A stretch of DNA of 11,131 nt, taken from UHGV virus genome UHGV-0072311, one strand, 5' to 3'. Within the stretch, counting starts at the first letter, position 1. Each line of letters begins with the position of its first letter. Shown one piece after another: positions 163-11,090 of the stretch. This DNA is from a virus. A program made the translations under genes and the position numbers. The notes below the pieces were generated by a model. It was not told where the DNA came from. It searched no databases and worked only from the letters and a program-made list of their open reading frames with translations.

Positions 163-164
163 GT

Positions 165-192
165 CCATAAGAAAGCCCCTCCGGAGAGGGGC
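165..192 (-). terminator. Terminator-like hairpin on - strand (GCCCCTC / CGGA / GAGGGGC, then UUUCUUAU)
   Basis: Seen in sequence: 7-bp GC stem 175-181/186-192 with a tetraloop. On the - strand it is followed by a T-rich but interrupted tract (rc of 165-174). It lies downstream of the pR'-like promoter in the late direction. Confidence 0.3.
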
Positions 193-625
193 TGGAGAGT
201 GGCGCTATGTGCCATTGCATGGTGCCGGGTGCCTCCCGGTGAGTTCAGTATCAGCACCTGAACCCGCACAGAAAGGATAAGGGTCGGTGACAAAACACCA
301 GTTGCTGATTGCCCCTCCGCACAGGGGGATTCACCATGCCAGTTTCTTTTAACAAACTCCCCGCAAACCAGACAACAGTCAACCGCCTGAATTGTGAGGT
401 ATTTAAAAATTTCAACGGGTAACTGATACCCTGCTAATCGCCTGATGATGGATTGTAATCAACAACAGAAAGCACCATTTCTGGCGTTAATTTTATTTCT
501 TTCATCGCTTTACCTTAGGGATAGAGCCTGTTCGCGTAGATATGACAGCCAAGAGCGGAGCGATGTTTCCACCACCATATCTCAGGCCCATATCACTAAG
601 ACTCTTGTTTTGATTGCACGCGAAT

Positions 626-1261: not shown

Positions 1262-1867
1262 TCATGCGGCCTCACTTCTGCTGTTTCGCAGGTCTTTGAG
1301 TTTCTGTTGGTACTCTGCCTTGATGGCCCTGCACTCTTCGACAGTCCAGCGATGGCGGTTATGGTTTGATTCGATTTCATCTACTGCTTCCTGCCCGATG
1401 CGGCTAATCAGTTCGACGCGATACGGAACGAGATTTCCGCTTTTGTGCTGGTTGCACACCACGCATTGCTTGTGAATATTGCGTTCATCAAATCGGAGTT
1501 GAGGTGCCGCAGCAGTTGTCCGGTAATGTCCGGCATCCCACTGAGCAGACGTGAGCGTTCCGCACGAGATACATGGTAAGTCGCGGTCTCTTTCTCTGAT
1601 GAAGGCGTTTACGGCTTGTTGGGCTTGTTTAATCCAGTAACTGCGGGGCTTTAAGGCGAGTTTTCGAATCTTCAGTTTATCTTTCTGTTTCTGCTCCTCT
1701 CGTCGTCGTTTCTTCTCTGCTGCTTTTTCCGCTTTTTCGCGTTCTTTACTTCGTCGTTCGAGTGCTAATTGAGTTCCGTGTTCCGGGCAGCACCACCACT
1801 GATTTGAGAATGCCGGGTGAAACCATTCCTTGCATATTTTGCATTTCCTTCGCGCTGGTTTAGCCAT
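1262..1867 (-). CDS. ninG: NinG / Rap recombination-promoting structure-specific endonuclease
   Basis: 201-aa product that closely matches my recollection of lambda NinG, including MAKPARR..., the [13 protein letters not shown] Cys-rich N-terminus and the lysine/glutamate-rich stretch. Its start codon overlaps the upstream gene's stop (TAATG). Confidence 0.9.
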
Positions 1868-2589
1868 TAAGCAGCCTCCCCTGTTACTTTCAGCATTCCG
1901 TTATCGAGCAGCTTTCTGGTCAGCCACTGTTGACCACGTCCGGTGATTTTTGTGGTGAACGATATCTGTATTCCGTGATTTGTGTTGACCGCTGTTTCTT
2001 TCACTGTGAAATAGCCGCGCTCCATATATTCCTGCATTGGCACATTTCGCCGGGAACCTGAAGCGATAAGGATTTTGTGATCGCGCATCCACGCAAACAG
2101 TTTGTTTGGACCAATTCCAACAACCTTTGCATAGTTTCCAATCAAAATTCCGCTGGCCTCGCCAACGCGATCGGCAAACTCAACTTTAGGTGCTGCGAGA
2201 GCAAGCTGTTTCTCCAGTTCAGCCTTCTGGTCTTCAAGGTCGGCCGCAAGGCGCAATGCCTCAGAAAAGGTTTGTGGTATTTTCGCGGTTGCCCCTTCGA
2301 GTTCTCGCCAACGGTCAACAAGACGAGCGGTGAATTCCGGCGACAACTGAGCGACGACAATAATGCTGTCTCGCTTACCTTGTTCGCCTTCGAATATATA
2401 CACGCTTGTGAATTTGTTAGGGCTAATTGTTTGTTTATTTTCAACTTTTTGCATTGGAGGAAGTTGAATCACCCCACGCTTTGCCAGACGTTCTATTGAT
2501 ATTCTGACATTACCGTGTTGGCTTCCCACCAACTCAGCGATTTCAATGCTTGTCATTTTGATGACGTTGCTATTTATCAGCTCATTCAT
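1867..2589 (-). CDS. Phage regulatory protein, Rha-family N-terminal domain plus KilA-C (antirepressor-type) C-terminal domain
   Basis: The N-terminus ([24 protein letters not shown]) resembles the Rha domain, and the C-terminal half (PKVEFADRV...[16 protein letters not shown]) resembles the antirepressor KilAC domain. I chose the ATG at 2589 because GAGAGGA lies 8 nt upstream; the in-frame ATG at 2595 has only a 2-nt spacer. The stop overlaps the ninG start. Confidence 0.7.
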
Positions 2590-2620
2590 TGTCATGTCCT
2601 CTCATATTGAAAATTCAGCA

Positions 2621-2663: not shown

Positions 2664-3341
2664 TCAGTAGCGATGCAGTGAAGGCGGCAACTCTTTGTTC
2701 TTAAGCCTTTCCCATGCCAGAAGGTTCGTCGGCCCGTCAGGCTCATAAATATCTATATCCCGCGTGTGATTAATTAAAACGCCCCTCGCCCTCCCGATGA
2801 TATACGAGAACTCATAGCCGTAGTCGTGGCATATGCCGGAATAGCCAGACTGAATCAGTTTTAATGCGGGATACAACTCACGGAACAATGCCTGTGAGCG
2901 GTTGGCATAATCCCACAGCCATACAAGGCTGTCTGTTTCTTTTGCGGAAAGCCCGTTGAGCTTCTTCTCTTGTTTACCAGTATTTTTCTCGCACTGGCTG
3001 AAATAGCAGTCTTCCAGTTTTTCGAACACATCCCACGCCTGATCGGTTTCTAGCATTTTGGCGTGACGGGCTGCGCCTCGTTCTGTCCAGAGGATGAGGT
3101 GCTTTGCTCGCGGTGCAACTAAGTTACTGTGAGTAACCTTGTTCTTAAATTCCCGCAATTCACCACCCTCCAGTTTAAAGTAGTGCTTACCACAAACAAA
3201 ACGCCCGGCATTGCGCGTATAGTTCACTTTAATGTTGTTGGTCTCAGTGCCGTAAAGTCGTGCCAGTAGTTCGGTAGTGATGACGGGGATGTGGTTATAG
3301 GTAATTGGGGAAAGAGTTTCAACGGAAATTTGAGTCGCCAT
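2664..3341 (-). CDS. ORF6N-domain DNA-binding protein (Roi/antirepressor-like)
   Basis: 225-aa ORF whose N-terminal segment [40 protein letters not shown] fits the ORF6N (KilA-N-related) pattern LYGV.T..LN..V.RN..RF. SD GAGGG lies 8 nt upstream. The Roi assignment is from memory and not verified. Confidence 0.6.
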
Positions 3342-3503
3342 GACAACGCCCTCTGGTTGATGAATTTAACTATCACCACCGTCAGGTGCAAATCTTTGGG
3401 TGGTGAGACGTACAGGGTTTGCACTACCGGATCAACCAACCGGCGAGCCTTTCGGCTCCCCCATACGCCCCACCATAATTCAGATGTGCGTGTGCTTACG
3501 ACA

Positions 3504-3527
3504 ACAAAAAACACGCTCGCGGCGTGT
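3504..3527 (-). terminator. Intrinsic terminator on the - strand (ACACGC-CGCGA-GCGTGT then U5GUUGU)
   Basis: Seen in sequence: 6-bp stem 3511-3516/3522-3527, followed on the - strand by TTTTTGTTGT. It would stop - strand transcription that runs antisense through the + strand island before it reaches the ORF6N gene. Confidence 0.5.
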
Positions 3528-3609
3528 GTCTGTCGCGGTTGAATATCCGGGGTGCAAATCCCGACGCCAGATTTTGCTGGCGTGCGAAGAATATAATCCC
3601 GGATATGTG

Positions 3610-3650
3610 TTGTCGTCAACATACCTTGAATGTATATAACAAATTTGTTA
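3610..3650 (+). promoter_or_regulatory. Candidate promoter (TTGTCG, 17 bp, TATATA) and 14-bp perfect palindrome TAACAAATTTGTTA, a likely operator for the toxin-antitoxin operon
   Basis: Seen in sequence: -35-like TTGTCG at 3610-3615 and -10-like TATATA at 3633-3638. The perfect palindrome at 3637-3650 overlaps the -10 and the first toxin ATG, which is the usual layout for autoregulation by an HTH antitoxin. Confidence 0.4.
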
Positions 3651-3991
3651 TGTTTACTCTCATGAACTACATTATCGAATACTACAGTGACGAGGTTGAA
3701 GCTGAGATCCTTTCTCTTCCTGAGACCTTACAAGCCCGGTACATTCGGTACACGGAGAAAATGCGTATTTACGGAGCTAATCTTGGTTCCCCGCATACAG
3801 AGGCATTTGGCGACGGTTTGTTTGAAATCCGCCTTAAGGGCTCGGAAGGCATAGGGCGTGTTTTTTACTGCACGCTAAAAGGAAAGCGAATCATTATGTT
3901 GCATAGCTTTGTAAAGAAAACGCAAAAAACTCCACCTGCCGAGCTTAGAAAAGCTGAAACCAGAATGAAGGAGGTTAAGCATGACTGGTAA
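3650..3991 (+). CDS. Type II toxin, RelE/ParE superfamily (Gp49/HigB-like 'addiction module killer')
   Basis: The product carries the signature ...DGLFEIRLKG...GRVFYC...RIIMLHSFVKKTQKTPPAEL... typical of Gp49-like toxins. The toxin gene is upstream and its stop overlaps the antitoxin start by 11 bp. The start is uncertain between the ATG at 3650 and the in-frame ATG at 3662; neither has a clear SD. Confidence 0.75.
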   Translation: MFTLMNYIIEYYSDEVEAEILSLPETLQARYIRYTEKMRIYGANLGSPHTEAFGDGLFEIRLKGSEGIGRVFYCTLKGKRIIMLHSFVKKTQKTPPAELRKAETRMKEVKHDW

Positions 3992-4289
3992 ACGTACCCC
4001 ACCTACCATGACACACGATGAAATGGTAGAAAAAATGTTGTCTAACCCCGCAGTAAAAGCAGAATACGACGCCATCGCCGATGAATTCGCACTACTTGAT
4101 GAAATGCTGGCAGCACGAAAAGAAGCTGGCTTAACCCAGGCTGAAGTTGCTGAACGTATGGGAACAAAAGCGACTGCGATAACCAGAATGGAAAGCAATC
4201 TTGCATCAGGTACAAGCGGCCCATCATTTGCCACACTGAAAAAATTCGCCCGTGCTACAGGGAAAAAACTCCAGATCCGCTTCGTTTAA
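3981..4289 (+). CDS. HTH (XRE-type) antitoxin, HigA-like 'addiction module antidote'
   Basis: 102-aa product with the helix-turn-helix motif GLTQAEVAERMGTKATAITRME and a C-terminus ending LKKFARATGKKLQIRF, typical of antitoxins paired with Gp49/HigB-like toxins. A strong SD GGAGG lies 6 nt before the ATG. Confidence 0.8.
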   Translation: MTGKRTPPTMTHDEMVEKMLSNPAVKAEYDAIADEFALLDEMLAARKEAGLTQAEVAERMGTKATAITRMESNLASGTSGPSFATLKKFARATGKKLQIRFV

Positions 4290-4301
4290 CTCTCCACTAC
4301 C

Positions 4302-4343: not shown

Positions 4344-4589
4344 TCACCGGATTACCACATCCCACTCCGGCTCCTGCCATCTCAAATCCGGTGAATCATT
4401 TCTCTCAGGAATAACCATTACGTCCTTTTCCCTTCGCTCCCTTTCTATCGCCATCACAGCCAATGCTGCAACCATGATGTATTTTTGTTCGTCGGTTCCT
4501 GTTTCATAACGACGCATGAGGGTAAACTCGGGGCGATCAGTAACCTCAATGATTTCGTTAATTTCTTTAATTTCGCGAGGAATATCCAT
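4344..4589 (-). CDS. Hypothetical acidic protein (81 aa)
   Basis: The ORF begins MDIPREIKEINEIIEV... and has an excellent SD, AAGGAG, 8 nt upstream on the - strand. Its ATG overlaps head-to-head with the ATG of the DUF4145 gene at CCATGG (4586-4591). I recognise no family. Confidence 0.45.
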   Translation of the reverse strand: MDIPREIKEINEIIEVTDRPEFTLMRRYETGTDEQKYIMVAALAVMAIERERREKDVMVIPERNDSPDLRWQEPEWDVVIR

Positions 4590-5262
4590 GGGTTTAGTCT
4601 CCTTTGATATCACATGCCCGCACTGTTTAAAAGAGCGAGCTGTTATTGAGGCATTTGCCGAAAAACAAATTGAAAAAACACCTTTTTTTAACGTCGCTTT
4701 TGTATGCAGAAGTTGTCATCGAGGAGGTGTTGCTATTGTTGAAATCCCATCAGACCACTATCACGGTCCCATGGCGGAAAGCCAGAAAAAAGACCTCGAT
4801 ATTCTGATTTCAGGAAATAGCCAGTACCGTTTCCGCAAGATCTATCCTGTGGTCAAAAAAATTACCGCACCAGAATATACGCCCCCGGTTGCAGACCGTA
4901 CTTTTGTTGAGGCAAAAGAGGATTTACAGAGGAGGCGGTACGACACAGTGGTTATTCTTTGTCGCAGAGTCCTCGATATCTCCACGAAAAAACTGCTCGG
5001 CGATGAAGCAGGAAAAGAATCGCTGTCGCAACGTATTCAGATGATTTACAAAAAAGGCCTGATCACTGAACAGATGAAGGAATGGGCTCATATTGTACGA
5101 ATTGATGCCAATAAAGCAGTTCATACAGATGAAGTTTTCACACCAATTGAGGCAAGCCAGATCCTGAGTTTTACCGAAATGTTTTTAGTCTACGCCTTCA
5201 CTCTGCCTGCAATGGTGGAAGCCAGACGTGAACAAAAAAGATCAGATTCAGCCTCTATATGA
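4588..5262 (+). CDS. Zinc-ribbon plus DUF4145-like (HEPN-superfamily-like) protein; candidate abortive-infection/defence effector
   Basis: The N-terminus has two Cys pairs (CPHC ... CRSCH), consistent with a zinc ribbon. The C-terminus carries EWAHIVRIDANKAVH followed by a hydrophobic helix, matching the DUF4145 pattern wA..iR..GN.aaH as I recall it. SD GAGG lies 5 nt before the ATG at 4588; the upstream in-frame ATGs at 4516 and 4549 lack one. Confidence 0.65.
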   Translation: MGLVSFDITCPHCLKERAVIEAFAEKQIEKTPFFNVAFVCRSCHRGGVAIVEIPSDHYHGPMAESQKKDLDILISGNSQYRFRKIYPVVKKITAPEYTPPVADRTFVEAKEDLQRRRYDTVVILCRRVLDISTKKLLGDEAGKESLSQRIQMIYKKGLITEQMKEWAHIVRIDANKAVHTDEVFTPIEASQILSFTEMFLVYAFTLPAMVEARREQKRSDSASI

Positions 5263-8964: not shown

Positions 8965-9165
8965 TTATGCAGTTGTTTTTTTGTTACTTGGGAAGGGCTT
9001 TATTTCTTCCGCATAAACGCTTCCATCAGCGTTTATAGTTAAAAAAATCTTTCGGCCTGCATGAATGGCCTTGTTAATCGCGCTTTGATATACGCCGAGA
9101 TCTTTAGCCGTCTTGGTTTGCCCAAAGCGTATTGCATAATCTTTCAGGGTTATGCGTTGTTCCAT
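8965..9165 (-). CDS. cro: Cro repressor (lambda-type)
   Basis: 66-aa product essentially identical to lambda Cro as recalled ([64 protein letters not shown]). SD AAGGAGG lies upstream. Confidence 0.95.
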
Positions 9166-9191
9166 ACAACCTCCTTAGTACATGCAACCAT

Positions 9192-9255
9192 TATCACCGC
9201 TAGAGGTAAAATAGTCAACACGCACGGTGTTAGATATTTATCCCTTGCGGTGATA
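9192..9255. promoter_or_regulatory. Lambda right operator OR1-OR2-OR3 with divergent pR (- strand) and pRM (+ strand)
   Basis: Seen in sequence: the 17-bp operators at 9192-9208 (OR1, TATCACCGCTAGAGGTA), 9216-9232 (OR2) and 9239-9255 (OR3) match lambda operators. OR1 has one base (T at 9201) that differs from the lambda sequence I remember (C). Confidence 0.9.
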
Positions 9256-9262
9256 GATTTAA

Positions 9263-9979
<717 letters not shown>

Positions 9980-10010
9980 TTGTTTTATTTTTCACGTAAT
10001 AGGATGATTT

Positions 10011-10772
10011 ATGACACAGTTTCAACTTGCATTAATCGCTAGAGAAGTTGATGGAGAAGTCATCCATCTTCGCACCAAAGACGGATACATCAATGCCACC
10101 GCGATGTGCAAGTCTGCGGGGAAGCTACTTGCTGACTATACACGACTAAAAACAACACAAGATTTTTTTGATGAATTATCACGCGATATGGGGATTCCCA
10201 TATCGGAGTTAATTCAATCATTTAAAGGCGGAAGAGCAGAGAATCAAGGGACTTGGGTTCATCCAGACATCGCAATTAATTTAGCTCAGTGGCTATCTCC
10301 AAAATTTGCAGTGCAAGTATCGAGATGGGTGCGTGAGTGGATGTCAGGTGAAAGAGCGCCTGCCGAACTCCCTATCCACCTTAAGCGGTATATGACAAAC
10401 CGAGGCAGAGTTCCTCATACGCACTTTTCTATGCTTAATGAACTGACGTTTAACTTGGTTGCGCCACTTGAACAGGCCGGATATACGCTGCCAGAAAAAA
10501 TGGTCCCTGATATTTCAGAGGGTAGGGTTTTCTCGCAATGGCTCCGTGACAACCGGGGGGTTGAGCCGAAGACATTCCCAACATATAACCATGAGTACCC
10601 AGATGGCCGGACATTCCCGGTACGTCTATACCCAAACGAATATCTTGCAGATTTCAAACAACACTTCAACGAAGTGTGGCTGCCTCAGTACGCTCCTAAA
10701 TATTTTGCTGAACGAGACCAAAGGGCATTGACGTTGATTGAGAAAATCATGCTACCTGACCTTGATTCCTAA
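10011..10772 (+). CDS. KilA-N-domain protein in the cI operon, at the position lambda uses for rexA/rexB
   Basis: 253-aa ORF starting 32 bp after the cI stop with SD AGGA. The N-terminal ~115 aa fit the KilA-N pattern (GYINATAMCKSAGKLLADYTRLKTTQDFFDEL...GTWVHPDIAINLAQWLSPKFAVQVSRWV). I recognise no family for the C-terminal ~135 aa. A strong terminator follows. Confidence 0.75.
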   Translation: MTQFQLALIAREVDGEVIHLRTKDGYINATAMCKSAGKLLADYTRLKTTQDFFDELSRDMGIPISELIQSFKGGRAENQGTWVHPDIAINLAQWLSPKFAVQVSRWVREWMSGERAPAELPIHLKRYMTNRGRVPHTHFSMLNELTFNLVAPLEQAGYTLPEKMVPDISEGRVFSQWLRDNRGVEPKTFPTYNHEYPDGRTFPVRLYPNEYLADFKQHFNEVWLPQYAPKYFAERDQRALTLIEKIMLPDLDS

Positions 10773-10780
10773 ATGTTATT

Positions 10781-10807
10781 CCCGGCCACAGAGCCGGGTT
10801 TTCTTTG
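10781..10807 (+). terminator. Intrinsic terminator ending the cI operon (timm-equivalent)
   Basis: Seen in sequence: CCCGGC-CACAGA-GCCGGG (10781-10798) followed by TTTTCTTTG. Confidence 0.7.
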
Positions 10808-10958
10808 CCTCACCCCCCCCACCTAAAGACACATAACCAAATGTATTTATTGAAAAATAAATAGATACAACTCACTAAACATCGCAATTCAGATCTCTCG
10901 ATCACCTCCCAAGCCACTCAACCCTGCAAAAAATAAATCCATATAAAAAACATACAGA

Positions 10959-11027
10959 TAACCATCTGCGGTGATAAATTATCTCTGGCGGTGTTGACAT
11001 AAATACCACTGGCGGTGATACTAAACA
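10959..11027 (+). promoter_or_regulatory. Lambda left operator OL3-OL2-OL1 with promoter pL (-35 TTGACA, -10 GATACT), oriented toward the window end
   Basis: Seen in sequence: ACCATCTGCGGTGATAAATTATCTCTGGCGGTGTTGACATAAATACCACTGGCGGTGATACT matches lambda OL/pL as recalled. The N-leader begins downstream, and the window ends before any N gene. Confidence 0.9.
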
Positions 11028-11090
11028 CATCAGCAGGACGCACTACTCACCAGGGCGGTGAATATACAACGATTCAAATATGAATCTACG

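Follow-up and report, generated by a model that had tools for sequence, protein, structure and literature searches.

A predicted BstA-family gene with a canonical KilA-N domain at the rexA-rexB position of a lambda-immunity prophage

In the Salmonella prophage BTP1, a single protein, BstA (st313-td), acts as an abortive infection system (Owen et al. 2021; PMC8585504). The bstA-BTP1 gene is situated behind cI in BTP1, and its expression in lysogens is high; the product acts against P22, ES18 and 9NA and, in E. coli, against lambda, phi80, P1 and T7 (PMC8585504). The protein stops phage DNA replication and colocalises with phage DNA. Over-expression of BstA-BTP1 is without effect on growth, and tested BstA leaves the frequency of lysogeny unchanged (PMC8585504). 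Before this defence role was known, BTP1 bstA had been tied phenotypically to virulence (st313-td; PMC8585504). The N-terminal domain of BstA-BTP1 was called KilA-N-like through HHpred only, and BstA homologues are often found downstream of prophage repressors, where lambda has rexAB at the corresponding site (PMC8585504). RexB is reportedly an ion channel of the membrane that RexA triggers, while BstA associates with DNA and inhibits the replication of phages (PMC8585504).

A phage that carries bstA evades its own BstA via aba, an element specific to the cognate protein (PMC8585504). In BTP1, aba is a 63-bp DNA made up of 29 bp upstream and the first 34 bp of bstA; it works as DNA, and its terminal CCCGCC direct repeats are essential (PMC8585504). 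BstA-Ec and BstA-Kp are tested homologues of BstA-BTP1, and all three loci have a cognate aba; these elements are unrelated in sequence (PMC8585504). In our set of loci, the BTP1 aba is located at 2462-2524 of L001.

KilA-N, Bro-N, Rha and AntA are also known from antirepressor-like phage proteins (domain families of Iyer et al. 2002). The protein studied here has the KilA-N domain in common with this group, together with a modular design in which a DNA-binding N-terminal domain is joined to an exchangeable C-terminal domain. In our search of the literature after 2021, no paper was found linking BstA with canonical KilA-N proteins or resolving the BstA mechanism, and no experimental test of any BstA member with a canonical KilA-N domain was found. 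The same search found no paper on phage PhiR5_2, which carries the gene described below.

The immunity operon and the replacement of rexA-rexB

The window, i.e. the whole stretch of 11,131 nucleotides analysed here (UHGV virus genome UHGV-0072311), is the early region of a lambdoid prophage. Its + strand is the lambda leftward strand. The features of the immunity region are:

8965-9165, - strand: cro
9218-9190, - strand: pR
9220-9265, + strand: pRM, whose sequence reads as lambda-type; drives cI
9266-9979, + strand: cI (lambda-immunity repressor, 237 aa), upstream member of the operon (ORF; lambda match)
9980-10010, + strand: cassette leader, 31 nt, between the cI stop and the ATG
10011-10772, + strand: predicted BstA-family gene, 253 aa plus TAA stop (ORF, PHROG 6287, hhalign)
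10047-10346, + strand: KilA-N domain, residues 13-112, predicted APSES-type DNA-binding fold (Pfam PF04383, AF2, Foldseek)
10368-10721, + strand: predicted BstA C-terminal domain, residues ~120-237, fold ~116-248 (PADLOC, BLASTP, PF26567)
10781-10807, + strand: intrinsic terminator closing the cI-bstA-like operon (terminator scan, fold, lambda homology)
10960-11022, + strand: OL3-OL2-OL1 and pL, the downstream boundary of the slot (promoter scan, lambda homology)

From cro through cI, OR included, the window (9106-9980) is 96.8% identical to lambda 38100-37226. A second block of 90% identity (window 10781-11052, lambda 35824-35559) runs through OL/pL, where OL1-3 are annotated in lambda. The first block ends at window position 9980, which is lambda 37226, one base past the cI stop; the second begins at window position 10781, which is lambda 35824, one base past the rexB stop. 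The lambda segment that is replaced, 35825-37225, corresponds to rexB and rexA. Bases 9981-10780 of the window therefore replace rexA-rexB exactly. The segment taking the place of lambda 35825-37225 has no significant similarity to the rexA/rexB segment, and the PADLOC search returned BstA and PDC-S22 only, with no RexAB. The gene thus shares with lambda rexA-rexB an identical slot, to the base, and the terminator; it would also share the operon logic of transcription with cI in the lysogen and, judging by homology, the role of prophage-encoded abortive infection. It differs from rexA-rexB in being unrelated in sequence and in encoding one protein, not two. The locus illustrates, to the base, that rexAB and a BstA-type gene are cassettes exchangeable behind one repressor.

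The cI stop codon TGA ends at 9979, and the spacer to the next ATG is 31 nt long (TTGTTTTATTTTTCACGTAATAGGATGATTT). A Shine-Dalgarno motif, AGGA, is located at 10001-10004, 6 nt before this ATG. The ORF at 10011-10772 has 2748 homologues at E<=1e-3, and the identical protein is present in 2229 blocks of the assembly collection; it is therefore not a chance reading frame. Past the gene, the terminator consists of a 6-bp all-GC stem (10781-10798) followed by TTTTCTTT, ending near 10807. Its RNA folds with -12 kcal/mol (z = -2.0), and 10 of 200 shuffled sequences fold as well, so that by folding energy alone this terminator is modest, or ordinary. The operators follow as OL3 (10960-10976), OL2 (10980-10996) and OL1 (11004-11020), as read from the sequence and the lambda annotation, and pL is TTGACA-17-GATACT at 10994-11022 (+).

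A preliminary description of this DNA had placed a 253-aa ORF with its own Shine-Dalgarno motif in the rexA/rexB slot of a lambda-immunity cI operon, 32 bp after the cI stop, with a strong intrinsic terminator and then OL/pL behind it. The slot, the ORF, its ribosome-binding motif and the position of OL/pL all agree with the present analysis. The close spacing was also correct, although the spacer is one base shorter than reported. The terminator is present at the expected place and is backed by lambda homology, but its folding energy does not justify calling it strong.

The terminator matches the lambda sequence that follows rexB and is therefore not a new element. We take this lambda segment to contain the immunity-operon terminator; the lambda record annotates none there. 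Phage HK544 is 100% identical over 10782-10813, and its record annotates this place as 'immunity region' and 'terminator'. The stem-loop is retained, with base changes, in L016, in E. coli H6 (EcH6) and in Proteus phage V3. On the + strand, scanning from the cI start to the terminator after the ORF detected no intervening terminator-like or sigma-70-like site, and a crude sigma-70 scan of the same strand gave no pLIT-like internal promoter between cI and pL. The lack of such sites fits co-transcription of the gene with cI. The arrangement is that of BstA-BTP1, which is likewise encoded by a single gene directly after a cI-type repressor gene on the same strand, with its own Shine-Dalgarno motif, a rho-independent terminator after the gene, and then pL/N.

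Domain composition and predicted structure of the protein

Residues 13-112 match the Pfam KilA-N profile (PF04383) with E 8.2e-27 and 93.6 bits, against a cutoff of 23.8, so that the KilA-N assignment made in the preliminary description holds. KilA-N was the only Pfam match of the protein, with no ANT/KilAC domain (PF03374), and the NCBIfam search returned no family. Over nearly its whole length (residues 1-252) the protein matches PHROG 6287, 'BstA abortive infection system, replication inhibitor' (E 1.8e-82), the alignment covering profile positions 6-301 of 304. The PADLOC BstA HMM matches residues 120-237 (E 2.5e-20; 123 of its 292 positions).

By BLASTP, the similarity to BstA-BTP1 is confined to the C-terminal domain: residues 133-251 align with BstA-BTP1 171-302 at 29% identity (E 5e-15). 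The BLAST identity to the BstA-Ec-type protein is 22%, again in the C-terminal domain only. Comparison of the two families by hhalign, that of the window protein against that of BstA-BTP1, extended the match to both domains (probability 97.7%, E 1.7e-12, 228 columns). Moreover, an identical protein in a public collection carries PF04383 KilA-N and PF26567 BstA_C, the latter as a precomputed annotation on that protein. BstA-BTP1 homologues carry PF26567 as well, and their UniRef name is 'BstA-like C-terminal domain-containing protein'. The C-terminal ~135 residues, which the preliminary description could not place in any family, thus correspond to the BstA C-terminal domain. Fourteen residues are invariant across both subfamilies (R126, N130, P135, F139, E144, D167, S169, G171, W177, H194, Y207, P208, F215 and Y231) and are candidates for mutagenesis.

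These matches indicate that the gene is a divergent member of the known BstA family, shorter than the described members and equipped with a canonical KilA-N domain. The two-domain build, a KilA-N or KilA-N-like N-terminal domain followed by BstA_C, is common to the window protein, BstA-BTP1, BstA-Ec and BstA-Kp. The window protein has 253 aa, compared to 307 for BstA-BTP1 and 301 for the BstA-Ec type. Its N-terminal domain is a canonical Pfam KilA-N domain (E 8e-27), whereas BstA-BTP1 itself gave no Pfam KilA-N match.

The full-length AF2 model had a pLDDT of 91.5, and the model of residues 116-253 a pLDDT of 92.3 and a pTM of 0.84, so that both are confident. With Foldseek, the N-domain model matched the Mbp1 DNA-binding domain (1bm8; probability 1.00, E 1.7e-3) and also the PCG2-DNA complex 4ux5. 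A sequence search of solved structures yielded only a weak Mbp1/APSES match to the N-domain (E 0.04). For the C-domain model, no informative fold relative was found among solved or viral structures.

Existing records label the window variant 'hypothetical protein' or 'KilA-N domain-containing protein' and nothing more specific. As the PADLOC BstA model aligns with less than half of the protein, defence-annotation pipelines may miss this variant, depending on their coverage thresholds.

Genomic contexts, alleles and spread

In all eight places read (8/8), the identical protein is encoded directly after a repressor gene of the HTH_3 + Peptidase_S24 type. The replication modules of these eight prophages are lambda O/P, O with a DnaC-like gene, or others; at one of the eight loci, the repressor is different and accompanied by a YdaS-type cro. 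The cultured phage PhiR5_2 also has the identical gene, annotated 'hypothetical protein' and likewise after a repressor, which makes function and self-immunity directly testable. In Proteus phage vB_BPM-V3, a homologue with 80% identity lies directly downstream of cI. Between repressor contexts, similarity extends from the last codons of the repressor genes to just past the terminator. Therefore the mobile unit is the leader, the gene and the terminator.

A 96%-identical copy is found in E. coli H6 (L006 3530-4291) after a different XRE/S24 repressor. RefSeq splits this copy into two ORFs (3530-3871 and 3950-4291), and it is probably disrupted and decayed.

A BstA-Ec-type gene from Table S1 of Owen et al. 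is 42% identical to BstA-BTP1 and follows a cI that is 99% identical to the cI of the window. It is therefore an alternative occupant of the slot, and one lambda-type repressor can precede rexAB, a BstA-Ec-type gene or the window gene. The occupants were counted in 5426 complete E. coli genomes:

rexAB: 99 of 5426
BstA-Ec type: 33 of 5426
window allele (>=90% DNA identity): 24 of 5426
second allele (78% DNA and 86.5% protein identity): 117 of 5426

With 141 genomes for its two alleles against 33, the window gene is about four times commoner than the tested BstA-Ec type in this collection. In the three records read, the second allele is found within the nin region, where its neighbours are on the other strand, and not beside a repressor. 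It is present in phage vB_EcoS-673R7 (L003 4001-4774) and in E. coli DA33137 (L007 3468-4241), where it is near a hok/gef gene. Its first ~33 coding bases and the DNA upstream are unrelated to those of the window allele.

With the C-terminal domain alone as query, 415 clusters (50% identity; E<=1e-3) were retrieved. The N-terminal domains preceding BstA_C in a set of 94 full-length representatives were KilA-N (30), Bro-N (21), Rha (16), AntA (12) and ORF6N (2). One metagenomic representative of 1230 aa (P0268) joins PriCT_2 and DUF3987, which we take to be of primase-helicase type, to a C-terminal KilA-N + BstA_C unit. In view of the replication block exerted by BstA, this fusion is of interest; only one such protein was seen, and a mis-called gene may lie behind it.

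We found the KilA-N + BstA_C form in 365 species, Proteobacteria included. Its identity is still 53-60% in Verrucomicrobiota, Bacteroidota, Planctomycetota, Spirochaetia and CPR bacteria, which is unusually high for a mobile accessory gene. Outside enterics, an S24 repressor was the upstream neighbour in only 3 of 74 cases, the neighbours being chosen by a crude longest-ORF rule that makes these counts approximate. Other upstream neighbours were genes with aceK kinase/phosphatase domains (8/74, all apparently Stenotrophomonas loci) and, in other taxa, IS1595-type transposases (6). Scattered defence-type neighbours of the KilA-N + BstA_C gene were also seen, namely AbiTii, SIR2 and NgoFVII.

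A repressor linkage universal to the canonical-KilA-N subfamily was considered and rejected on the 3/74 figure; the linkage is therefore not general, and the function of the subfamily might differ outside enterics. In Stenotrophomonas and relatives (L039, L041, L044-L046, L048, L052, L056, L061 and others), KilA-N + BstA_C is a chromosomal gene standing alone, and a large divergent ORF lies upstream of it.

Tentatively, the BstA proteins with a canonical KilA-N domain may form a distinct branch, with a far wider range than the characterised BstA proteins and mostly outside prophages, and BstA_C may serve as a general effector for at least five N-terminal domains; we regard this as possible but less likely than not. 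If it were true, many prophage genes called 'antirepressor', 'Bro' or 'KilA' would be abortive-infection defences, and the N-terminal domain would set the recognised DNA, the target or the cognate aba. With its canonical KilA-N domain, the branch may be well suited to studying how aba and the DNA-binding domain recognise one another. The range of N-domain partners, the spread over 365 species and the scarcity of repressor neighbours outside enterics go somewhat beyond the 2021 paper (PMC8585504).

Proposed function, self-immunity and other elements of the window

We think it likely that the gene encodes a BstA-family abortive-infection protein, carried on a compact leader-gene-terminator cassette that replaces rexA-rexB after cI. 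In the lysogen, the gene would be read with cI from pRM and the protein would always be present, as expected from homology to BstA-BTP1, BstA-Ec and BstA-Kp. When a foreign phage begins lytic DNA replication, the protein would move to the phage DNA. The KilA-N/APSES-type N-terminal domain is the likely DNA-binding part, and the BstA_C domain would mediate the block of phage DNA replication. The infected cell would die without releasing progeny, and the lysogen population would be protected. On induction, the prophage would have to evade its own protein; by analogy, the cassette itself would hold a cognate aba element that acts as DNA and probably covers the leader together with the first codons.

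The preliminary description had suggested a possible single-gene exclusion or regulatory function, and homology predicts the former. The idea is not new. BstA, its position and the analogy with rexAB were described by Owen et al. (2021), and BstA was already known as a prophage abortive-infection protein with DNA self-immunity and a preference for the site downstream of cI, that of rexAB (PMC8585504).

Some features of the protein would also suit a KilA-N/Bro-type antirepressor, or a transcription regulator of the phage's own development with no part in defence. Indeed, the N-domain matches PHROG 129 'transcriptional regulator' (E 8e-24), homologues are labelled 'DNA-binding protein' or 'transcriptional regulator' in phage records, and BstA_C is also found behind Bro-N, Rha, AntA and ORF6N, typical of antirepressor-like proteins. 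We nevertheless consider such a role quite unlikely. The full-length match is to BstA and not to antirepressors, and the C-terminal domain is BstA_C, with no ANT/KilAC domain. Lysogeny would be undermined if an antirepressor shared the pRM transcript with cI. In addition, the nin region of the window already has two antirepressor-type genes. Both the position in the immunity operon and the tested function of the family point to defence; the tested relatives are abortive-infection proteins without effect on lysogeny frequency (PMC8585504).

Constitutive expression beside cI would be incompatible with a toxic product, which speaks against a host-killing or growth-modulating gene of the 'kil' type, although the name KilA-N derives from P1 KilA, a host-killing protein. 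Over-expression of BstA-BTP1 does not alter growth either (PMC8585504). The implication of BTP1 bstA in virulence before its defence role was found (PMC8585504) could favour a lysogenic-conversion gene, but the carriers are commensal, animal and environmental E. coli, and the family extends to many phyla, a distribution unfit for a host-specific virulence factor. Either function, if it excluded an anti-phage role, is very unlikely.

The abortive-infection reading leaves the question of how carriers escape their own protein. Unlike the BTP1 aba, the region 9950-10120 contains no pair of directly repeated hexamers placed ~57 bp apart around the ATG, and a CCCGCC-type repeat is lacking at the window locus. 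Near the start codon, only repeats of chance size were found: GAGAAGT twice, the inverted pair TCAACTT/AAGTTGA, and GGATGA/TCATCC 58 bp apart. When the leader and 5' codons were aligned with seven other copies or alleles, no conserved DNA element emerged, and alleles whose proteins are 80-92% identical share no conserved leader. Since each aba is specific to its own homologue, sequence alone cannot show that one is absent at the window locus. In L016 and EcH6, where the repressor genes are different ones, the leader again accompanies the gene. By analogy with BTP1, the 31-nt leader is a candidate site for the upstream half of a cognate aba-like element.

That no aba-like repeat was found and that the leader differs between alleles would also agree with a BstA-like defence working without aba, either because its carriers are naturally insensitive or because self-immunity amounts to pRM shut-off on induction. 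Most members outside enterics are not in prophages and would need no self-immunity. However, the identical allele occurs with at least three different replication modules, and natural insensitivity of all carriers is therefore unlikely. Lambda itself is BstA-sensitive, and all three tested BstA loci have a cognate aba, these elements being unrelated in sequence (PMC8585504). Moreover, a leader of ~30 nt moves with the gene between repressor contexts. We therefore judge an aba-free system rather unlikely. Since the identical allele accompanies differing replication modules and lambda-type replication is BstA-sensitive, the abortive-infection cassette would need to bring its own immunity determinant, and carrier prophages probably require such a cassette-borne determinant.

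Several other elements were noted in the window. On the - strand, Rfam matches identified a C4 antisense RNA (3396-3480, 74 bits) and isrK (3506-3583, 75 bits) immediately upstream of an antirepressor-type gene with ORF6N + P22_AR_C domains (2664-3341, -). This group presumably resembles the P1/P7-style c4-ant module, here in a lambda-immunity nin region. The second antirepressor-type gene, with Rha + ANT/KilAC, is at 1867-2595 (-). A full-length match to the STnc100 sRNA family (143 bits) lies at 163-368 (-), downstream of the gene for the antiterminator Q (700-1218, -), in what we take to be the expected site of the late-promoter leader.

Finally, two overlapping genes (3524-3991 and 3981-4289, +) run counter to the nin genes around them, as expected of a moron. 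They encode a Gp49/DUF891 protein (E 1e-26), which we assume to belong to a HigB/RelE-like toxin family, and an HTH_3 protein, and look like a toxin-antitoxin pair. They are followed on the same strand by a gene at 4516-5262 (+), whose 248-aa product has an N-terminal pair of CxxC motifs and a C-terminal DUF4145 (E 5e-9). This protein had no PADLOC match, and its gene is a possible further accessory or defence gene.
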